From Candidatus Rariloculaceae bacterium (GTDB taxonomy: Bacteria > Pseudomonadota > Gammaproteobacteria > Steroidobacterales > Rariloculaceae), in the NCBI GenBank assembly GCA_965221035.1, contig OZ244860.1:1184687-1248686 (forward strand): DNA of 64,000 nt. Reading direction: 5' to 3'. Shown in pieces: positions 1,328 through 61,698 of the stretch. The position numbers were made by a program, and so were the translations under genes. Numbering within the stretch: the first letter of the stretch is position 1; each line of letters begins with the position of its first letter. The notes beneath the pieces are model-generated. The model did no database searches. It was not told the DNA's origin and saw only the letters and a list, made by a program, of their open reading frames with translations.

Positions 1328-3592
1328 CTACTTCGAATTGGGCACTACCGGCGCGATCGCGTCGACCTTTCGGTAGCCACGCGGCAGCGCCAAACCGCGA
1401 CGGCCCCTGGTAGCCATGTATTTCTCGTGCAGGTCGATCGGCCTGAGCCGCATGTACCGCGTGCCGCAGAAGACCATCACCGCCTGGCGCTCGGCGAACG
1501 AGCAGAGGGACACCAGACGCAGATCCTGGCCCTTGGGCAAGCTCATTATCCTGTTGCCCCGGCCCCGGGCCAGGGCCGGCAGCTCTTCCAGGGGAAATGC
1601 CAGAAACCGGCCGTCGCTGGATGCGGCGGCGAGATACCGATGGGTGTCCGCAATTTGTGCCGCAGGCAGCACCTCAGCGCCCTTGGGAACATTCAGAACC
1701 GATTTTCCGGCCTTGGCGCGGGAGTGCAGGTCCTGCAGCGTGGCGATGAATCCGTATCCCGCCGTAGTCGCCAGCACCCAATGATCTTCCGGCTCGCCGA
1801 TGAGCACCGACTTGAATGTTGAACCATCCGGCGGATTCAGCCGCCCGGATAACGGCTCACCAAGGCTGCGGGCGGAAGGCAGCGTGTGCGCCGGCAGACT
1901 GTAAGCCCTGCCGGTGCTGTCCAGAAACACCGCCAACTGGTTGCTTCGACCCTTCGCCGCGGCCAGCAATGCGTCTCCGGAGCGGTAGTTCAACGCCGCG
2001 GCATCCACTTCGTGGCCCTTGGCCGCCCGCACCCAGCCGTGTTCGGACAGCACCACGGTGACCGGTCCGCTGGCGACCAGGTCGGACTCGTCGATCACCT
2101 GCGCCGCCTCCCGCTCGACGATACGCGTGCGTCGAGAGTCGCCGTGGTCCTCCGCCAGCGCCGTGAATTCCTCTTTGATGAGCGATACCAACCGGCTTCG
2201 GGAACCCAGAATCTCCTCCAGATCGGCCCGCTCGCCTGCGAGATCCGCCTGCTCGCCCCGGATTCGCGCCTCCTCCAGCCTCGCCAGGTGGCGCAGCCGC
2301 AGCTCCAGCACGGCTTCGGCCTGCACGTCGCTGAGCCCGAACCGTTGCATGAGCACGGGCTTGGGCTCATCTTCCGCACGGATGATGGCGATGACCTCGT
2401 CGATATTGAGAAAGGCGATCAACAAGCCGTCAAGGATGTGCAGCCGCTTCGTCACCCGCCGCAAGCGGTGTTCGAGCCGCCGCCTGACCGTGGCGGTGCG
2501 GAATTTCAGCCAGGATTCAAGCAGTGACTTGAGACCAAATACCGCCGGCCGGCCGTCCAGACCGATCACGTTCAGGTTGACCCGGACCGACCGTTCCAGA
2601 TCCGTTGTCGCGAACAAGTGGCCCATGAGCGCATCGGTGTCCACGCGGTTGGAGCGCGGCACCAGCACCAGCCGGGTGGGGTTCTCGTGGTCGGACTCGT
2701 CGCGCAGATCCTCCATCATCGGCAGCTTTCTGGCGCGCATCTGCGCGGCGATCTGTTCCAGCACCTTGGCGCCGGACACCTGGTAGGGCAGCTCGGTGAT
2801 GACAATGGCACCTTGCTGCACCTCGTACCGGGCGCGCAGCTTCAAACCGCCGGTCCCCTTGTTGTAGATTTCCGCGATGTCCGAGGGTGGCGAAACCAAC
2901 TCGCCGCCGGTGGGGAAATCCGGTCCCTTGATGTGCCGCATGAGCTGGGCGGTGGAGGTCTCCGGCTGTTCCAGCAGGCGGATCACGGCAGTTGCGACCT
3001 CGCGCAGGTTGTGCGGCGGCACGTCGGTGGACATGCCCACGGCGATGCCGCTGGTACCGTTCAGCAACAGGTTGGGCAGCCTGGCCGGCAGCAAGGCGGG
3101 CTCCTGGAGCGTGCCATCGAAATTCGGCGCCCAATCTACCGTACCCTGGTCCAGCTCCGACAGCAGGATCTGCGCATAGCGCGTCAACCGGGCCTCGGTG
3201 TAACGCATGGCCGCAAACGACTTGGGATCGTCCTGGGAACCCCAGTTGCCCTGCCCGTCGACAATCGGATAACGGCAGGCGAACGGCTGCGCCATGTGCA
3301 CCATGGCCTCGTAGCAGGCCGAGTCGCCATGGGGGTGGAACTTGCCGATGACATCACCGACAGCCCGGGCCGCCTTCTTGGGCTTGGCCGCGGCCGACAT
3401 GCCGAGGTCGCTCATGGCGTAGATGATCCGGCGCTGCACCGGCTTGAGACCGTCGCCGATGTGCGGCAGCGCCCGGTCGAGGACCACGTACATGGAATAA
3501 TCCAGGTACGCCTTCTCGCTGAACTCCGCCAGCGAAAGGCGTTCGATCCCTTCGAAATTCAATTCCTGTTCATGCATGGACTCATCTCGCAT
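1328..3592 (-). CDS. parC: DNA topoisomerase IV subunit A
   Basis: 754 aa. The N-terminus ([33 protein letters not shown]) is the GyrA/ParC signature, and pairing with the adjacent parE supports ParC. Alternative start at 3577 (MHEQE). Confidence 0.93.
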
Positions 3593-3651: not shown

Positions 3652-3802
3652 GCCGCAAGGCCGGGCGAGCAAGCCCATTGCGGGCTCAAGTTCGCCCGCC
3701 ATCCCTGGCGGGCTCACATCGGGGCCCGGCGCTCCTGGCCATCCCTGGCCCCGCGCCGTGCCCACGACGCCCGCAATGGGCTTGCTCGCCCGGCCTTGCG
3801 GC
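3652..3802. repeat. Composite palindromic element, copy A (34-bp perfect arms, two-hairpin core)
   Basis: 3652-3685 is the exact reverse complement of 3769-3802 (34/34). Internal hairpins are GCCCGCCA-TCCC-TGGCGGGC (3694-3713) and GGCCA-TCCC-TGGCC (3737-3750). The core aligns with 38499-38580. Confidence 0.85.
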
Positions 3803-3842: not shown

Positions 3843-5882
<2,040 letters not shown>

Positions 5883-12920: not shown

Positions 12921-13905
12921 CGAAAAAGTGCAAGTAACCGCCGTACGCTCTCCGCTCCAGCGTTTGACCGTTCCGCCTGCAATGTATGCCGCTGCCGACC
13001 TGCAGTTGGCCTATTCTGCGCACCGGCGTGCCGCAGCGAGGCAAGACTCGCCGGACCGCCCGGCGCCTGGAGGAAGGCGCGGTAAAACACAGCTCGTAAT
13101 CGTCCCCTCCGGTCAGGGCCCAGTTTTCCACCTCATCCGTGGAAAACAGCGCCCTTGCATATTCCGATGTCGGCACCCTCTCCACATCGATCCGGGCGCC
13201 GCAACCGCTCGCCTCGCACAGATGTCCCAGGTCGGCGAGCAGACCATCGGAAACGTCGATGGCGGCGCTGGCGATGCCTCGCAAGGCGAGCCCTTCCGCA
13301 AGCCGCGGCTGCGGCCTGAGAAACCGCTTGCGAAGCGCCCGATGCGCGGCCCCTTCGCCGGGGTCGTTGGATACCAGGAGCCGCAAGCCCGCCCCGCCGT
13401 CCCCCAGGCAACCGGTGACGTAGATGTCATCGCCCGGTGCGGCGCCAGCACGGGTCAGCATCCGTTCCTTGTCCACTTCGCCAATCATCTGAACCGTTAC
13501 CGAAAGAGGGCCGCGCGTGGTGTCGCCACCCACCAGGACGACCCCATGCGTCTCGGCCAGTTCGAAGAACCCACGCGCGAACGCCTCAAGCCAGGCGTGA
13601 TCCACCTCCGGCACCGTCAGCGCGAGCGTGCACCAGCGCGGCCGGGCGCCCATGGCGGCAAGATCGCTCAGGTTCACGGCCAGGATCCGGTGGCCCACGG
13701 CATCGCCCATGAGATCATCCGGAAAATGAACGCCCGCGACCATCGTGTCGGTGGCGACCGCCGTCGCCTCCGCGGTTTCAATGACCGCCGCGTCATCACC
13801 GATTCCCAGAATTACTCCGGGACCCTTGATGTCCCGTACGAAATACTGCCGGATGAGCTTGAATTCGTCCCGGCTCAACGGCGCCGGTTCAGGTTGCGCG
13901 GCCAT
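12913..13905 (-). CDS. thiL: Thiamine-monophosphate kinase
   Basis: AIR-synthase-like blocks (EFKLIRQYF, GIGDDAAVI, VAGVHF, GGDTTRGP). Start uncertain: ATG at 13905 overlaps the nusB end, and TTG at 13878 is an alternative. Confidence 0.88.
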   Translation of the reverse strand: MAAQPEPAPLSRDEFKLIRQYFVRDIKGPGVILGIGDDAAVIETAEATAVATDTMVAGVHFPDDLMGDAVGHRILAVNLSDLAAMGARPRWCTLALTVPEVDHAWLEAFARGFFELAETHGVVLVGGDTTRGPLSVTVQMIGEVDKERMLTRAGAAPGDDIYVTGCLGDGGAGLRLLVSNDPGEGAAHRALRKRFLRPQPRLAEGLALRGIASAAIDVSDGLLADLGHLCEASGCGARIDVERVPTSEYARALFSTDEVENWALTGGDDYELCFTAPSSRRRAVRRVLPRCGTPVRRIGQLQVGSGIHCRRNGQTLERRAYGGYLHFFDA

Positions 13906-14314
13906 CGATTCCCCGCGCCGCACGGTCCAGCACGGCGTTGACAAACCGGTGGCTATCCAGCGGTCCGTACCGTTTCGCCAGTTCCACCGCCTCGTTGATG
14001 ATGACCCCCGTGGGGATGTCGTCGCGCTGATGCAATTCGGCGAGTCCCAACAGCAGGATTGCCCGGCTCACGGGATCGGTGCTGTCGATGCTCCTGTCCG
14101 CCTGCGCCGCAATTTGCGCATCCAGGGACTCGGCGTCGCGCAGTACCACGGCCAGCAGTTCTCTGAAGTACTTCCGGTCCACGGACTCGCGACCGGGCAC
14201 CTCGATGAACTGTTCGCGAAGGTCGGCTTCGCCGTGCCCGGCCAACTGCCACTGGTAGAGCGCCTGGATCAGCAATTCCCTTGCTTCACGGCGGCGATGG
14301 ACTGGCGCCGTCAC
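13889..14314 (-). CDS. nusB: Transcription antitermination factor NusB
   Basis: 141 aa (RREARELLIQALYQWQL...INEAVELAKRYG). Canonical position after ribH. Confidence 0.9.
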   Translation of the reverse strand: MTAPVHRRREARELLIQALYQWQLAGHGEADLREQFIEVPGRESVDRKYFRELLAVVLRDAESLDAQIAAQADRSIDSTDPVSRAILLLGLAELHQRDDIPTGVIINEAVELAKRYGPLDSHRFVNAVLDRAARGIDGRAT

Positions 14315-14332
14315 TTGCGCTCCCCACCGCGC

Positions 14333-14806
14333 TCAGGTTGCCAGACGGCGGCGCAGATTGGCCATTTCGATCACGGCCAGCGCCGCTTCCGCACCCTTGT
14401 TGCTGGAGCCGGGGCCTGAGCGCGCACGGGCCTGTTCGATGGTGTCGACGGTGAGAATGCCGAACCCCACTGGAATCCCGTGCTCCAGGCTGACCTCGGT
14501 CGCGCCGCGGCTGGCTTCCCCCGCAACATAGTCGAAATGGGGTGTCTCGCCGCGGATGACGCAGCCGATGGCAACAAGACCGTCGTGACGGTGGCCGTCG
14601 GCCAGCAGCTTGAGAGCCAATGGAATCTCGAACGCTCCCGGCACGCGAACCAGGTCCAGTTCGCCGGCCTCCGCGCCGGCCTGGACCAGCGTCTCCACCG
14701 CCGCCTCCAGCAGGCGGTCGACAATGAAGTCATTGAATCGGGAGGCGACGATCCCGAAACGAAGTCCCCTGGCGCCGAGGTCGCCGGTCATCCCGTTGAT
14801 GTCCAT
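14333..14806 (-). CDS. ribH: 6,7-dimethyl-8-ribityllumazine synthase
   Basis: 157 aa (RFGIVASRFN...VPGAFEIP...IGCVIRGETPHFDYV). Confidence 0.93.
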   Translation of the reverse strand: MDINGMTGDLGARGLRFGIVASRFNDFIVDRLLEAAVETLVQAGAEAGELDLVRVPGAFEIPLALKLLADGHRHDGLVAIGCVIRGETPHFDYVAGEASRGATEVSLEHGIPVGFGILTVDTIEQARARSGPGSSNKGAEAALAVIEMANLRRRLAT

Positions 14807-14842
14807 CTTCTGTGTCGCTCGCAGCGTCCGCTGGTCGGGTGG

Positions 14843-15997
14843 CTAGTCTGCCGGCGCCTCGTCCGACAGGTACTCGACCACTTCCAGGCCGAATCCGGAA
14901 ATGGCGTGCATCTGCATGGGCGCGCTCAGAACACGCATGCGCTTGACGCCCAGCGCCCGGAGTATCTGCGCGCCGGTGCCGAAGGTCTTCAGTTCGCTGG
15001 TCCGGTCATGGGGGATCTCGTGCGCATGGCGTCCGCGCCCGAGATCCCTGATGGTGGACATCAGCTCCCTCGGGTCCTCGTTCCGACGAAGGATGACGAC
15101 CACGCCGCATCCCTCCCGGGCGATCCGTTCGATGGCGTTCCGCAACGGCCAACCCAGGCGGCTGTCCTGGATTCCGACCACGTCGCTCAAGGTATTCTGA
15201 AGGTGGACCCGCACCAGGGTCGGGGCGCCCGGCCGTGGCTTGCCGCGCACCAGCGCCAGATGCACGGTGGTGTTGATACGGTCCTCCATGCATACCAGTC
15301 GGAACGGTCCGAATTCCGTCTCGACCTCGAAATCCGCGATGGCTTCGACAGTTTCTTCCTTGGCCAGGCGGTAGCTGATGAGATCGGCGATGGTGCCGAT
15401 TTTCAGACCGTGCCGCCCGGCAAAGCGCAGAAGATCGTCGCGGCGGGCCATGGAGCCGTCCTCATTGAGGATTTCCACGATCATCGCCGCCGGCTCAAGA
15501 CCGGCAAGCCGCGCCAGGTCGCAACCCGCCTCGGTGTGTCCGGCGCGTGTCAGCACACCGCCGGACTGCGCCCTGAGGGGAAAGACGTGACCCGGCTGGC
15601 GCAGGTCCTCCGGCCGGGCATTTGGCGCGACCGCCGCCCGGATCGTACGCGCCCGGTCATGGGCGGAGATTCCCGTGGTGACTCCTTCGGCTGCCTCGAT
15701 GGACAGCGTGAAGTTGGTGCTTCGTCGCCGATTCGTCTCACTGACCATCAGCGGCAGACGCAGTTGTTCGCAGCGCTCCCCCGTCAGCGTGAGGCAGATG
15801 AGTCCGCGTCCGTAACGCGCCATGAAATTGACGTCGGAGGCGCACACCCGGCTGGCGGCCATGATCAGATCGCCCTCGTTTTCGCGGTCTTCGTCGTCCA
15901 GGATGACCACCATCCTGCCGTCGCGCAGGTCGGCGACAATGTCCTCGGTGGTGTTCAGCCCGGCAACCGCAGTTTCCTTGTTGATGGGAATGGCCAC
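14843..15997 (-). CDS. ribBA: Bifunctional 3,4-dihydroxy-2-butanone-4-phosphate synthase / GTP cyclohydrolase II
   Basis: 384 aa with the DHBP synthase block (DDEDRENEGDLIMAA, RAGHTEA) and a C-terminal GCHII-like half. Confidence 0.92.
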   Translation of the reverse strand: MAIPINKETAVAGLNTTEDIVADLRDGRMVVILDDEDRENEGDLIMAASRVCASDVNFMARYGRGLICLTLTGERCEQLRLPLMVSETNRRRSTNFTLSIEAAEGVTTGISAHDRARTIRAAVAPNARPEDLRQPGHVFPLRAQSGGVLTRAGHTEAGCDLARLAGLEPAAMIVEILNEDGSMARRDDLLRFAGRHGLKIGTIADLISYRLAKEETVEAIADFEVETEFGPFRLVCMEDRINTTVHLALVRGKPRPGAPTLVRVHLQNTLSDVVGIQDSRLGWPLRNAIERIAREGCGVVVILRRNEDPRELMSTIRDLGRGRHAHEIPHDRTSELKTFGTGAQILRALGVKRMRVLSAPMQMHAISGFGLEVVEYLSDEAPAD

Positions 15998-27323: not shown

Positions 27324-27413
27324 GGAGGGATGCCGGAGTGGTCGAACGGGCTTGACTCGAAATCAAGTGACGGGTTTACCCGTCCGTGGGTTCGAATCCC
27401 ACTCCCTCCGCCA
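27324..27413 (+). tRNA. tRNA-Ser (anticodon CGA)
   Basis: Hand-folded cloverleaf: acceptor GGAGGGA/TCCCTCC, 3-bp D stem, anticodon stem CTTGA/TCAAG with loop CTCGAAA, long variable arm GACGGG-TTT-CCCGTC (mismatch: actually GACGGG/CCCGTC pairs), T arm GTGGG-TTCGAAT-CCCAC, and an encoded CCA. Confidence 0.92.
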
Positions 27414-38372: not shown

Positions 38373-38467
38373 CTTGGCGCTTCTCTTGCGGAATCCTCGA
38401 CTTGTAATAGCATGGTATTTGCTAGTCTGCCAGCCTGATTTTTGGGCATTTGCCGGATTTTGTGGGA

Positions 38468-38611
38468 GAGAGGGCGTGGGCGTACCGGGGTTGGCGGCTT
38501 AATCGAGTCCGCCATCCCTGGCGGACTCGAATCGGCGCTCGGTGCTTTCGCCATCCATGGCTGCGCGCCGAACGCACGACGCCGCCAACCCCGGTACGCC
38601 CACGCCCTCTC
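38468..38611. repeat. Composite palindromic element, copy B (31-bp perfect arms, two-hairpin core)
   Basis: 38468-38498 is the exact reverse complement of 38581-38611 (31/31). Hairpins are TCGAGTCCGCCA-TCCC-TGGCGGACTCGA (38503-38530) and GCCA-TCCA-TGGC (38550-38561). The core is homologous to 3686-3768. Confidence 0.85.
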
Positions 38612-38645
38612 GGCGCTGCCTGTGGGTGGCGAGCTCGGGCTGAGC

Positions 38646-40571: not shown

Positions 40572-40653
40572 TATTGGAAGTGCCCTATTGGACCCCTATT
40601 GGACCCCTACTTGGACCCCCTATTGGACCCCTATTGGACCCCTATTGGACCCC
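40572..40653. repeat. Seven-unit tandem array with 11-bp period (TATTGGACCCC)
   Basis: Five exact 11-nt units, one 13-nt variant (TACTTGGACCCCC) and one degenerate first unit (TATTGGAAGTGCCC). Lies between the convergent stops of the ABC exporter and the AlbA_2 gene. Confidence 0.9.
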
Positions 40654-48241: not shown

Positions 48242-48257
48242 TATCTCAACATAGCAC

Positions 48258-48304
48258 GCATAACACGAAAATTCGAAGTTCAGGTACGAATTTTCGTGTT
48301 ATGC
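48258..48304. promoter_or_regulatory. 18-bp perfect inverted repeat immediately upstream of the AAA/DUF4143 gene
   Basis: GCATAACACGAAAATTCG (48258-48275), an 11-nt loop, then CGAATTTTCGTGTTATGC (48287-48304). AT-rich, starting 17 nt from the start codon. Confidence 0.6.
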
Positions 48305-48389
48305 GGCCAAAATCAACGGTGGACTGTTCAACCCACTGATGACACCATGCGGAGCCGGGTCGCCCTCACGAGGCCACGGAGCGATTTTG

Positions 48390-51140: not shown

Positions 51141-51228
51141 GTCCCCCCGCGCGTCAGCTGCCGTCCCCCCGCGCGTCGACCGCCGTCCCCTCGCGCGTCG
51201 ACCACCGTCCCCCTGCGCGTCGTCAGCC
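51141..51228. repeat. Four-unit tandem array with 22-bp period
   Basis: Units GTCCCCCCGCGCGTCAGCTGCC, GTCCCCCCGCGCGTCGACCGCC, GTCCCCTCGCGCGTCGACCACC and GTCCCCCTGCGCGTCGTCAGCC, between the convergent ppc and ybbA-like stops. Confidence 0.85.
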
Positions 51229-51244
51229 GATTCGCGGAGCTGCG

Positions 51245-54376: not shown

Positions 54377-54688
54377 ATGAAGGAAGAAGTGCGATGGCTG
54401 ATCGGCATCGGGATCATCCTCGCCGGGTTGATTCTGAACGGTCAACGTGTGAACGGAAACCGCATTGACCGGCTGGAGGCGGCGCTCGCAGAACACCGGC
54501 TGGAAGCGGCCAGGGAATTCAATCGCCTGGAGGAAGCGCTCAACGAACATCGCGCCGAAGCGGCCAGGGAGTTTGATCGGCTGGAGGAAACGCTGACCGA
54601 ACACCGATTGGAGGCGGCCAGGGAGTTCGTCGAGATCAGGAGCACCCTTGATTTTCTGCTCCCCGGTGATCCTCCAGGTGGGCAGTGA
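54377..54688 (+). CDS. Hypothetical small membrane-anchored protein with three 14-aa tandem repeats
   Basis: 103 aa with one TM segment (WLIGIGIILAGLILNG), then a repeated EHRLEAAREFxRLEExL unit three times. No strong RBS seen. Confidence 0.5.
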   Translation: MKEEVRWLIGIGIILAGLILNGQRVNGNRIDRLEAALAEHRLEAAREFNRLEEALNEHRAEAAREFDRLEETLTEHRLEAAREFVEIRSTLDFLLPGDPPGGQ

Positions 54689-54704: not shown

Positions 54705-55949
54705 TCAGCCGACCAGCCCCCAGAGCAGGTAGATCGCCACTCCCACCAGTCCGCCCACCAGGGTGCCGTTGATGCGGATGAACTGCAGGTCGCGGCCGAT
54801 GTAGAGTTCGATTCGCGCCGACGTGGCGGCCGGGTCCCACTGCTCGATGGTTTCGGAGATGAAGGCGCTCAGGGGGTCTCGGTAATTATTGATCAGGTAG
54901 AGGACAAGATCCCGAAGCCAGCGGTTGACCTGCCGGTTGACGTCGCCATCCTGCCTGAGCCCGTGGCCGATGCCCCTGAGTTCACCATCGATCGCCAGCC
55001 GGCTGAGGGATTCAGGATCGCGCAATGACGCCGCAAGGTACTCCCGCAACTTTTCCCAGACGTCCTGAAAGTAGCCCTGCACGGCCGGGTGGTCGAGGAA
55101 TTCGTCCTTGAGCTCCCCGGCCAGCCGCCGCATCTGGGGATCATCGCCCAGGGCCGTCCGGACCTCGGCAAGCCAGGCATTGAACCTGGCCCTTGCCGGG
55201 TGATTCCGGTCCGCGCCGATCTCGTCCAGGATGCGCCGCAACTCGTTGATCAATTGGTCATGGATTTCCCGGTCCACGAACTTCGGCAACCACCAGGGGC
55301 TGCGGTCATCGATACGATCACGTATGTGCTCCTTGCTGCGCTCCAGTTGTTCCCGGGCGAACAGCACCAGCCGGTCCACCACCGCCTGGGAGTGCCCGCC
55401 CGAAGCCACCACTTCCAGCGCGGCCTGGAATGCGGAAGATAACGGTGCCCGGTCCAGCGCCGAGCCCAATATCTCCCGAAGGGCGTTGCGCAACTGGGCG
55501 CTGTCCGTCGCGCTCAACAACCACACCAGCGCCACGCTGATGTCCCGGCCCAGGTTGCGCGCGTGGTCTTCGTCGGCCAGCCAGGCCCCCGCACGAGCGG
55601 CAAGGTCCACGTTTTCCAGGCGCGCCGCCACCGTCTCCCCGACCAGGAAATGATCGCGAATGAAATCCGCCAGCATCCGGCCGATTTCGTCCTTGCGCGT
55701 GGGCACGATGGCGGTATGCGGTACGGGCAGCCCCAGCGGATGGCGGAACAGCGCAGTGACCGCGAACCAGTCCGCCAACGCGCCGATCAGCCCGGCTTCG
55801 GCAAAGGCCTGGACCAGCCCCAGCCAGGGATGGCGCGGCAGCAGCAGGCTGGTCGCGACAAACAGGGCCGCCATGGCGAGCAGAAGGCCGGTGGCGATCC
55901 AGCGCATCCGCGCCAGCCGGCGCGCCATGAGCGCTTCGGCAGTGTTCAC
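54705..55949 (-). CDS. DUF445-family membrane protein
   Basis: 414 aa with N- and C-terminal TM segments around a long helical core. The pattern recalls the YjiN/DUF445 family, from memory only. Confidence 0.6.
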   Translation of the reverse strand: MNTAEALMARRLARMRWIATGLLLAMAALFVATSLLLPRHPWLGLVQAFAEAGLIGALADWFAVTALFRHPLGLPVPHTAIVPTRKDEIGRMLADFIRDHFLVGETVAARLENVDLAARAGAWLADEDHARNLGRDISVALVWLLSATDSAQLRNALREILGSALDRAPLSSAFQAALEVVASGGHSQAVVDRLVLFAREQLERSKEHIRDRIDDRSPWWLPKFVDREIHDQLINELRRILDEIGADRNHPARARFNAWLAEVRTALGDDPQMRRLAGELKDEFLDHPAVQGYFQDVWEKLREYLAASLRDPESLSRLAIDGELRGIGHGLRQDGDVNRQVNRWLRDLVLYLINNYRDPLSAFISETIEQWDPAATSARIELYIGRDLQFIRINGTLVGGLVGVAIYLLWGLVG

Positions 55950-60186: not shown

Positions 60187-61698
60187 TCACTCGCGCAGGA
60201 TGTTCGGCGTCACGAACACCATCAGTTCGACTTCCTTCTCGATCGTGACCCGGGAGCGGAACAGGCGGCCCAGCGCCGGCACGTCGCCCAACACCGGCAC
60301 CTGGCTGGTGGCTTCCCGCGACTCGGTCTCGATGATGCCACCGAGAACCACGGTTTCCCCGTCGCCCACCAGAACCTGGGTCGTCAGCGACCGCGTGTCC
60401 ACGCTCGGCACAAGGCCGCCCGTGGCGCTGGACACCAGTTCGCCGACCGAATCCTTGGTGACCACCAGATCCATGACGATGCGGTCGTCCGGAGTGATCT
60501 GCGGCGTCACCGACAGGCTCAACACGGCCTCCTTGAACTGGGTAGTGGTGGCGCCGCTGGATGAGGACTCCTGATAGGGAATCTCCGTACCCTGCTCGAT
60601 GCGCGCCTGCTTCTGGTTGGCGGTGATGATGCGGGGCATGGAGACAATCCGCCCGTTGCCTTCGGCCTGGATCGCGGAGAGCTCGAGATCCAGCAGGTAG
60701 TCGGGCCGCAAGATCGCCAGTGACAGACGCCCGGCGGGATTGGCGACCGGAAGGTTGACGCTGTAGCGCTGATCGACGGGCGGCATGAAACCCGATAGAG
60801 GGCCTGGCCCGCTTGCGATGCCTTCGACCGCCGAGGCCGCCAGCGAGTCGACTCCCGCTCCGGTGCCGGATATCGCGATCAATGTATCGTCGGTCGGCGA
60901 GCCGATGGCCGTGGCCCCCAGGCGCACTCCCAGATCCCGCCGGTAGTCGCCGTTGACGATGACGACCCGGGATTCGATCAGCACCTGGCGGACGGGCTTG
61001 TCGAGGGTTGCGACCAATGCCGCGATGTCCTCGATGCGGCTGGCGATATCCTGCACCAGCAGGGTATTGGTCCGTTCATCGACGGTCACGCTGCCGCGGG
61101 CGGAAACCAGCGGATTCTGGCCGCCGCCCAGGGCGAGGGTCGCCAAATCGGCGGCCTTGGCGTAGTTGATCTGAAGGTATCTGGTTTGCAGCGGCTCCTG
61201 CTGCCGGCGTTGGAGTTGTTCGGCCTGGGCGGCCTGTTCCCGTGCGGCCAGCTCCTCCGGGGGAGCGACAATGATCACGTTGCCGTGCCGGCGCGTGTCG
61301 AGGCCCTTTGTCGTCAGTATGGTGTCGAGCACCTGATCCCAAGGTACATCCCTCAGTTGCAGGGTCACGCCGCCCTGGACCGAGTCGCTCACGACCATGT
61401 TCAAACCACCCGTTTCGGCCAGCAACTGCAGCACGGCGCGTGTGGGTATGTCCTGGAAATTCAGCGACAACCGTTCGCCTGAGTAGCCATCCCCGTTCTC
61501 GGACGAACCGGATGGACCGGATGGACCGGGCGGATCGGATGGACCGGGCGGATCGGATGGACCGGGCGGATCGGATGGACCGGGCGGATCGGCAGTAGAC
61601 TGAGCCTGAACTTCCAACGTAGAAGAGAAAACGGTCCAGGCTGCCACCGCACATACCCATCCGGCCACCCGGTAACCGCATTTCAACGCCTGTCTCAT
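60187..61698 (-). CDS. pilQ: Type IV pilus secretin PilQ
   Basis: 503 aa with the secretin C-terminal domain (VLVGDGETVVLGGI...VPVLGDVPALGRLF) and an N-terminal PPGPSD low-complexity linker. Confidence 0.92.
   Translation of the reverse strand: MRQALKCGYRVAGWVCAVAAWTVFSSTLEVQAQSTADPPGPSDPPGPSDPPGPSDPPGPSGPSGSSENGDGYSGERLSLNFQDIPTRAVLQLLAETGGLNMVVSDSVQGGVTLQLRDVPWDQVLDTILTTKGLDTRRHGNVIIVAPPEELAAREQAAQAEQLQRRQQEPLQTRYLQINYAKAADLATLALGGGQNPLVSARGSVTVDERTNTLLVQDIASRIEDIAALVATLDKPVRQVLIESRVVIVNGDYRRDLGVRLGATAIGSPTDDTLIAISGTGAGVDSLAASAVEGIASGPGPLSGFMPPVDQRYSVNLPVANPAGRLSLAILRPDYLLDLELSAIQAEGNGRIVSMPRIITANQKQARIEQGTEIPYQESSSSGATTTQFKEAVLSLSVTPQITPDDRIVMDLVVTKDSVGELVSSATGGLVPSVDTRSLTTQVLVGDGETVVLGGIIETESREATSQVPVLGDVPALGRLFRSRVTIEKEVELMVFVTPNILRE

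Follow-up and report, generated by a model that had tools for sequence, protein, structure and literature searches.

In a 64,000-nucleotide stretch of the genome of a Candidatus Rariloculaceae bacterium (contig OZ244860.1, positions 1,184,687 to 1,248,686 of the forward strand; hereafter the window, to which all coordinates without a locus prefix refer), two palindromic elements, copy A at 3652-3802 and copy B at 38468-38611, are members of a previously undescribed family of structured palindromic intergenic repeats of ~145-155 bp. The family is confined to a clade of uncultivated marine Gammaproteobacteria, comprising Candidatus Rariloculaceae and neighbouring metagenome-assembled genomes. 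The core of the element is constrained in sequence and its arms are constrained only to pair. We consider it probable (about 0.6) that this is a REP/REPIN/BIME-like structured repeat, with a conserved asymmetric centre and free but paired ends, which spread in the past and is now retained. Repeats such as REP, BIME, REPIN, Correia and ERIC shape bacterial intergenic space, and their mobilisation and function are understood in few model organisms only. The present family provides an unusually clean natural experiment, in which a sequence-conserved centre is combined with stems that are free but paired and that, at orthologous sites, change only by double substitutions, while the element as a whole changes more slowly than synonymous sites. 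It makes testable whether such elements are kept up by host-level selection, by hairpin-templated correction or by both, and also which strand and which molecule, single-stranded DNA or RNA, is the functional one.

The first-pass annotation of the window had described a composite element made of a conserved two-hairpin core and always-paired arms, and this description is upheld across the enlarged set of copies presented here. In copy A, a repeat finder and direct reading agree on 34/34 complementary arms around an 83-nt interior, and both mini-hairpins with a TCCC loop are present with the sequences first reported, at 3694-3713 and 3737-3750. The core of this copy reads, in order, TCAA, hairpin 1, an ATCG junction, the long hairpin 2 and CACGAC. 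The outer arms of copy B are perfectly self-complementary as well (31/31) and enclose a core of 82 nt (Table 1). Two CCA-TCCN-TGG hairpins are common to both cores, and the two interiors share CCGCCATCCCTGGCGG, which has two exact occurrences in the window and three matches at up to two mismatches, where 0.35 would be expected by chance; a shared degenerate core pattern of 34 nt occurs twice in the window, against 0.00 expected in shuffles. A chance origin of the elements is ruled out by these shuffles and by the recurrence of the element elsewhere. The two-mismatch match to the shared 16-mer at 55821-55836 was considered as a third copy and rejected, since it lies in apparent coding sequence and is without arms. 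Either strand of copy A is predicted to fold as a 34-bp stem bearing two hairpins on a short junction helix, the predicted folding energies of the two strands being -144 and -138 kcal/mol (z = -11.8 and -14.3 against shuffles).

Further copies were sought by one core-pattern scan of a species-representative genome collection, which returned 67 loci from ~9 genomes, with up to 14 copies per genome by the exact pattern; a relaxed pattern gave five further full copies in metagenomes. The source labels of the 67 loci are Candidatus Rariloculaceae, unclassified Gammaproteobacteria or Proteobacteria, the exception being one 2.6-kb contig binned as Chloroflexota. Four copies that were found only by sequence profile also have perfect or near-perfect arms (31-38 bp) and show small variants of the core (CCG-TCCC-TGG, GCCG-TCCG-TGGC and CGCGAC). 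The viral contigs searched hold no copies of the element and neither do the PLSDB plasmids, and a phage or plasmid origin was rejected on this ground. In the literature we found no paper with the 14-mer hairpin and none on repeats in Candidatus Rariloculaceae. As a marker, the family distinguishes an uncultivated clade that is apparently sponge- or marine-associated, whose genomes it could make harder to assemble and annotate; gene callers, for example, put spurious open reading frames (ORFs) across the elements.

In almost every complete copy, arms 27-42 bp long (most commonly 31) and with 0-3 mismatches flank an asymmetric core of 82-86 nt in which two hairpins, each capped CCA-TCCN-TGG, stand on a 3-bp junction helix. 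When the arms are lined up from their inner ends, the earlier claim that those of copies A and B are unrelated in sequence has to be withdrawn. It had been made because only two copies had been seen, and the arms turn out to be fast-diverging versions of one consensus, ~GCGAGGGYGYGYGCGGACAGCCCTTGYGCGC, with several subfamilies, the arm of copy A resembling those of loci L013 and L014 and the arm of copy B those of L003 and L067. The broader observation of a conserved core with non-conserved arms holds: arms differ by ~40% between loci (mean pairwise distance 0.40), as compared with 0.21 for cores. Arm and core distances are uncorrelated (Mantel r = 0.04), and a single arm type was met with four types of core; between copies, the combinations of arm and core are reassorted. 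In an alignment of 57 full elements (hereafter A1), the invariant columns are all confined to the core and the two innermost pairs of the arms. The inner 6 bp of hairpin 1 are invariant in this pattern-selected alignment, the search pattern itself having required the CGCCA/TGGCG part of them, and the outer pairs of the same hairpin covary. Seen from the reverse strand, the two loops of copy A are GGGA, which is a GNRA tetraloop; among the pattern-selected copies loop 1 is always GGGA and loop 2 is NGGA.

The hairpin CCGCCA-TCCC-TGGCGG was also met in soil and sediment contigs, within unrelated tandem units of ~50 nt that each carry a second, different hairpin as well (L075:6652-6760, L080:2304-2404, L084:11136-11313 and L094:309-384; further contigs with such units are L082, L086, L088-L090, L092 and L096-L098). 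It may therefore be a convergent stable GNRA hairpin and not a marker of the family. The array in L094 is situated close downstream of the gene for an RNase P RNA and that in L084 immediately follows the stop codon of an ORF, in both cases with the GGGA loops in the sense strand.

Pairing, and not arm sequence, is what the copies have in common at their ends. RNAalifold on A1 gives the 31-bp outer stem, hairpin 1, the TCG/CGA junction helix and hairpin 2, and for a specified structure 95.2% of the alignment cells form standard pairs, compared with 77% in column shuffles and 33-45% with slid partners; the covariation score is 0.468, against 0.13 in shuffles. The arms are consistently complementary throughout this larger alignment, and their pairing is kept by double changes, with changes on both sides at 29 of the 31 base pairs. 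The arms contain hardly any G.U (~1% of the cells in the 31-bp stems) and are essentially Watson-Crick paired, in which they resemble an inverted repeat at the DNA level more than a helix formed only by RNA. Thus, of the earlier proposal that selection acts on structure and not on arm sequence, the part concerning structure stands, as pairing is maintained by covariation, and a purely RNA structure as its target is disfavoured by the scarcity of G.U in the arms together with the lack of orientation bias relative to flanking transcription (see below). Only 29 of 1733 arm pairs are mismatched, and the mismatches are unequal between the strands: on the TCCC-loop (+) strand 14 are A.C and 2 are G.T (p = 0.004), and 7 are T.C and none C.T, an asymmetry that would favour folding of the reverse strand, whose loops are GGGA. 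The core suggests the opposite: G.U pairs are tolerated there on the + strand, in 20 cells of A1, and loop-closing A-to-G variants occur in the profile-found copies.

Many loci are orthologous between species, as judged by alignment of their flanks; copy A has orthologues in L052 and, inverted, in L027, and copy B in L003 and L067. In 10 independent orthologous pairs, covering 301 arm positions, 38 arm differences are compensated in both arms, against 3 that affect one arm only. Divergence between orthologues amounts to ~0.13 in the arms, ~0.075 in the core and ~0.23 at four-fold degenerate sites of the flanking genes. Several orthologous pairs have completely identical elements (for instance the 154-nt element of L006 and L047), and others, such as L038 and L045, differ by a single base, despite a four-fold-site identity of only 0.84-0.88, which argues that the elements are constrained and are not drifting. 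In L010/L038 and L002/L006 the arms have changed at or above the four-fold-site rate and are still fully compensated. Independent drift would give mismatched arms and does not fit alone. Neutral drift with unbiased arm-to-arm conversion, taken alone, was likewise rejected, because it predicts the four-fold-site rate in the arms, whereas the observed rate is about half of this and zero in several pairs. Selection on pairing fits the evolution of the element best, possibly assisted by hairpin-templated correction of one arm from the other through quasipalindrome template switching, which is a known correction mechanism.

The element is inverted relative to its flanks in eight orthologous pairs, for instance L004/L007 and L027 as compared with the window and L052, and L034 and L065 carry the same locus-specific arms around different core types. 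The idea that the arms were a pre-existing palindromic target into which the core was inserted was rejected, as no palindrome of arm and complementary arm without a core was found and orphan arms occur only as tandem arrays of linker plus left arm beside full copies. Two such arrays of 54-nt units, L061:7626-7826 (3.7 copies, 98% matching) and L020:5642-5780, lie directly upstream of a complete element, and L054, L061 and L062 have partial cores beyond the right arm. A different kind of rearrangement was seen at L001:6900-7110 and L060:6500-6715, which belong to two genomes: compared with the intact orthologue L016:994-1147, the left arm is cut at the same position, 6 nt from its inner end, and the replacing DNA has lower GC, ends in GAGTAGTTGCAAT and shares AATCCGCTTTC..TTGCTTAC upstream. 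This break may mark where a different mobile or integrative element, one targeting the arm, ends; the ORFs upstream of it encode short-chain dehydrogenases and not a transposase.

All copies are intergenic and usually lie 20-130 nt from gene ends. Crude GC3-based gene calls placed genes on both sides of 49 copies, of which 20 (41%) are between convergent genes, 12 are co-directional in sense and 8 in antisense orientation, and 9 are divergent; copy B lies in a divergent spacer between two ABC-transporter-like genes. With 12 sense copies against 8 antisense and 9 divergent ones, there is no orientation preference relative to transcription. Orientation does correlate with local GC skew, taken over 8 kb and serving only as a proxy for replication direction: the TCCC-loop strand is the G-rich strand in 47 of 64 loci, and with orthologues collapsed the counts are 31 and 10 (p = 0.0015). 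Flanks showed no copy-specific target-site duplication, the longest shared flank word averaging 3.88 within a copy and 3.86 between copies, and no terminal direct repeats above expectation.

Oriented G-rich words were noticed in the 20-nt flanks (GTGGG, TGGGG and TGGTGG, with GTCGCG on the left), at 12-20 times background, and their reverse complements are almost never found there. GTGGG or TGGGG is present in 21% of left flanks (background ~1.5%) and TGGTGG in 16% of right flanks (background 0.8%); examples in the window are 38456-38467 and 38620-38632. The left flank of L008 contains GCTGGTGG, which is the Chi sequence of Escherichia coli. These words may belong to the element, reflect a target preference or be skewed words of the leading strand.

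Copy A lies in the parE-parC spacer, as had been annotated from the letters. The identity of parC was confirmed by homology, its product matching proteins that carry PF00521 and PF03989 at up to 88% identity and its more distant hits, at 73-75%, being named topoisomerase IV subunit A; that of parE is supported by the position of the ORF and by orthologous loci, where the gene upstream of parC bears the GyrB-type domains HATPase_c, DNA_gyraseB and Toprim. The contigs of parC relatives were fetched and their parE-parC spacers were read (Table 1). Relatives whose parC is 73-83% identical to that of the window have spacers of 6-666 nt without the element, which is found only in a sub-clade, and copy A appears from this comparison to be a lineage-specific insertion into an otherwise tight operon junction. 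In the window and in L052 the element is antisense to transcription from parE to parC and in L027 it is sense, and this free orientation argues against a role specific to these two genes. The location is without special meaning, as members of the family occur in intergenic regions of every kind. Neither in the spacer of copy A nor in that of copy B was a sigma-70-like promoter or an intrinsic terminator predicted, so that parC is probably read through the hairpin, and a 34-bp RNA duplex in this spacer would be a plausible RNase III substrate, as had been proposed alongside a cruciform-prone DNA site. In L068, the closest parC relative, a BREX/Pgl-type defence cluster (BrxC/PglY, methyltransferase and PglZ; L068:1-7775) was observed immediately upstream of parE, and a DDE_Tnp_1 transposase (13156-14883) downstream of parC.

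Searches for a known class of element were negative. The gathering-level scan of the window with Rfam 15 gave no match on either element and returned only a tRNA, and nine other loci of the family gave nothing; E-value scans of both copies yielded generic miRNA-hairpin matches far below threshold and, for copy A only, a twister-sister match that is likewise below its threshold. The first-pass annotation had stated that the element is neither a classical miniature inverted-repeat transposable element (MITE) with conserved termini nor a simple terminator, and we agree on both counts, since target-site duplications are absent and the ends are the least conserved part, and since there is no T-run and the terminator scan of both spacers is empty. 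Among the 104 genes adjoining elements, which are ordinary metabolic and transport genes by Pfam and protein clustering, no transposase or Y1 family and no site-specific recombinase recurs. A tblastn search with the RayT protein of E. coli gave no match in the 837 kb around at least 70 copies, and a transposase next to the copies was discarded after protein clustering, Pfam and tblastn had all come back empty. No insertion sequence (IS) with the same ends as the element was seen within the sequenced surroundings of the copies.

The family is compared here with four groups of known elements, among which REPINs are the closest analogue. REPINs have invariant 16-mer ends of REP type and a variable spacer, and are associated with RAYT transposases (Bertels and Rainey, 2011; PMC3116915). 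The likeness lies in the size and intergenic location (~100-150 bp), in the folding as a long hairpin in single-stranded DNA or RNA, in the upkeep of this hairpin by compensatory changes (here 29/31 arm pairs, and 38 against 3 between orthologues), in the ordered tandem clusters formed by some copies (here L061 and L020) and in long vertical persistence. Target-site duplication is not mentioned in PMC3116915 and none was detected in the present family. REPINs differ in that their centre is a simple loop, whereas that of the present family is a branched two-hairpin domain, and the 837 kb around its copies hold no RAYT match. REP sequences, BIMEs and REPtrons are built from palindromes of 20-50 nt that are preceded by a conserved GTAG and are linked to a RAYT (TnpA-REP) gene (Corneloup et al., 2021; PMC8266576). 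Like the present elements they are small, high-copy extragenic palindromes enriched at gene ends, and the recognition of REP hairpins as folded single-stranded DNA by a Y1/HUH enzyme suggests one way in which the two identical hairpins of the core could be recognised; the 31-bp outer arms and the 83-nt core set the present family apart from them.

PATEs derived from IS200/IS605 resemble the family in that one strand carries a direct pair of similar sub-terminal hairpins, in the lack of target-site duplication and in a replication-linked orientation bias (here 31 against 10 by the GC-skew proxy). However, the ends of IS200/IS605 are not inverted repeats, whereas here perfect inverted arms (31-34 bp) surround the core, and no TnpA or TnpB gene or full-length parent was seen at the loci of the family. 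Correia elements of Neisseria, ERIC/IRU and YPAL measure 100-170 bp, lie between genes and have inverted repeats at their termini; transcribed together with the neighbouring genes, they form long RNA hairpins that are RNase III substrates or stabilisers of mRNA. Their termini are conserved, and Correia elements have a TA target duplication. Size and terminal inverted repeats are common to them and to the present family, and a long duplex acting as an RNase III substrate is the mechanism proposed in the first-pass annotation. The termini of the present family differ from theirs in that they vary and covary, no duplication is found and it is the centre that is conserved. Taken together, these comparisons suggest that the family is REP/REPIN/BIME-like in kind, membership in any of these groups not being established.

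The reading that we prefer, of a REP/REPIN/BIME-like repeat, would imply that the element spread in the past as a folded single strand, with the help of a trans-acting enzyme that, like HUH/Y1 or RAYT enzymes, recognises the paired hairpins of the core, and that the family is now mostly immobile and retained. Copy A would have been inserted into the normally tight parE-parC junction. Transcription in either direction would produce a very stable ~31-bp hairpin that could be a site for RNase III, protect 3' ends or insulate transcription. Several points weigh against this reading. The conserved asymmetric centre and the variable ends are the reverse of the conservation found in REPINs, and the hairpins are without the GTAG of REP sequences, since in A1 the letters before hairpin 1 are TYAA and those before hairpin 2 are ATCG, and on the reverse strand GTCGTG stands before helix 2. 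No mobilising enzyme was found in the 104 adjoining genes or in the 837 kb of sequence from the loci. Paralogues within a genome are mostly no more than 87% identical, so that the family is old and recent transposition is not demonstrated. The apparent conservation of the core is inflated, because the copies were chosen by an exact pattern that fixes 33 core bases, and the gene calls, the orthology and the replication direction are crude or simple proxies. Moreover, the inference of the strand is contradictory, arm mismatches and core G.U pairs pointing to opposite strands, and the attempt to read the functional strand from wobble pairs was abandoned for this reason. We also put forward, tentatively, a more specific proposal, according to which the Y-shaped core may be the recognition module of a strand-specific nucleic-acid machinery, either a non-RAYT enzyme acting on single-stranded DNA or a host protein acting on the lagging-strand template, with the arms kept perfect by selection or arm-to-arm copying and the whole domesticated under purifying selection. 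If true, this would mean a replication- or transcript-linked function, and a new class rather than another REP-like repeat.

An alternative that we hold to be possible but doubtful is that the element works in cis for the host as a structured RNA, for example as a module for processing, stability or insulation that is placed at many gene boundaries, is kept by selection on its RNA structure and has a protein-bound core. Conservation in place above that of synonymous sites, the massive covariation, the enrichment at gene 3' ends and the GGGA (GNRA) loops of the reverse strand agree with this, as do the arm mismatches, which are mostly G.U or G.A when read on that strand, and the CCGCCA-GGGA-TGGCGG hairpin of the soil arrays, at least two of which are in sense orientation (after the RNase P RNA gene and after an ORF). 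However, the elements show no orientation preference with respect to flanking transcription and are carried in either orientation by orthologues; G.U at ~1% of arm cells is unlike RNA-selected helices, the core tolerates G.U on the opposite strand, and neither spacer of the window has a sigma-70-like promoter or an intrinsic terminator. The purely Watson-Crick arm pairs agree with a structure at the DNA level, in which a hairpin of the lagging-strand template, or a cruciform, would be a protein-binding or priming site, much as BIMEs bind gyrase and IHF, and the arms would be kept perfect by quasipalindrome template-switch correction. The correlation of orientation with GC skew, the flipping of cores between inverted arms, the reassortment of arms and cores and the oriented G-rich flank motifs (GTGGG, TGGGG and TGGTGG, 12-20 times background) all go in this direction. 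We nevertheless regard this explanation as unlikely, because unbiased arm correction predicts a neutral arm rate and the observed one is about half the four-fold rate and zero in several pairs, because no binding protein is known, and because replication direction is represented only indirectly by GC skew over 8 kb.

The long terminal inverted repeats with a family consensus, the multiple dispersed intergenic copies and the presence/absence differences at parE-parC recall a classical MITE, that is, a deletion derivative of an IS with a DDE transposase that was moved via its terminal inverted repeats. The absence of target-site duplication, the covarying termini, which are the least conserved part of the element, the age of the paralogues and the fact that no transposase was seen near any copy make this very improbable. 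Hardly any weight can be given to an intrinsic, possibly bidirectional, terminator or to an invertible promoter switch: the hairpin is very stable and GC-rich, 41% of the copies lie between convergent genes and the orientation flips between species, but there is no T/U-run on either side (the flanks are G-rich, not T-rich) and no promoter-like site, nine copies are in divergent promoter regions, copy A is inside an operon junction and, unlike known invertons, the 83-bp segment has no adjacent recombinase. The chance that the element is a twister-sister self-cleaving ribozyme, or another known Rfam RNA, is close to nil. Copy A does score 27.4 bits against RF02681 (E = 0.0004 in a 271-nt search), with matches on GCAAGGCC and GGCGCUC.UGG; the gathering threshold is 34, the match relies on the private arm sequence of copy A and on pairings that compete with the perfect 34-bp helix, and neither copy B nor nine other loci gave a match. 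A twister-sister identity is thereby refuted for the family.

Table 1. Features of the two elements and of the parE-parC region in the window, with the parE-parC spacers of relatives.
Feature	Position	Strand	Remarks
Copy A left arm, 34 nt	3652..3685	+	Exact reverse complement of 3769-3802; arm subfamily of L013, L014
Copy A asymmetric conserved core, 83 nt	3686..3768	+	Full-length alignment with 56 other copies; predicted Y-shaped fold
Copy A hairpin 1	3694..3713	+	GCCCGCCA-TCCC-TGGCGGGC
Copy A hairpin 2 domain	3719..3767	+	Repeat finder, fold prediction, pair counts
Copy A hairpin 2, junction helix TCG/CGA	3719-3721 with 3765-3767		
Copy A hairpin 2, outer helix	3722-3732 with 3753-3763		
Copy A hairpin 2, apex	3737-3750		GGCCA-TCCC-TGGCC
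Copy A right arm, 34 nt	3769..3802	+	Complementary to left arm
Copy B left arm, 31 nt	38468..38498	+	31/31 complementary to 38581-38611; arm subfamily of orthologues L003, L067
Copy B core, 82 nt	38499..38580	+	Contains hairpins 1 and 2
Copy B hairpin 1	38503-38530		TCGAGTCCGCCA-TCCC-TGGCGGACTCGA
Copy B hairpin 2, apex	38550-38561		GCCA-TCCA-TGGC
Copy B right arm, 31 nt	38581..38611	+	Complementary to left arm
parC (topoisomerase IV subunit A)	1328..3592	-	Homology; downstream of copy A
parE-like ORF	3843..5873	-	ORF list; upstream of copy A in transcription direction
L068 spacer, 177 nt			parC identity to window 88%; 5'-truncated copy, L027 orientation
L069 spacer, 666 nt			parC identity 83%; no element, unrelated insert
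L070 spacer, 158 nt			parC identity 79%; no element
L071 spacer, 204 nt			parC identity 77%; no element
L072 spacer, 77 nt			parC identity 75%; no element
L073 spacer, 6 nt			parC identity 73%; no element

Apart from the two elements, a search of the 64-kb window for inverted repeats of 18 nt or more (within 300 nt) gave only one perfect 19-bp repeat and three palindromes of 78-94% (18-23 nt). The perfect one, at 48257-48305, consists of CGCATAACACGAAAATTCG and its complement (19 bp) around an 11-nt loop and is AT-richer than its surroundings. The tRNA gene found by the Rfam scan (27324-27410, 87 nt) is presumably of the type with a long variable arm. We also would like to mention short tandem arrays at 40583-40653, 51141-51229, 54491-54628 and 61499-61592, the units of which are, respectively, 11 nt (x6.3), 22 nt (x4), 54 nt (x2.6) and 18 nt (x5.2).

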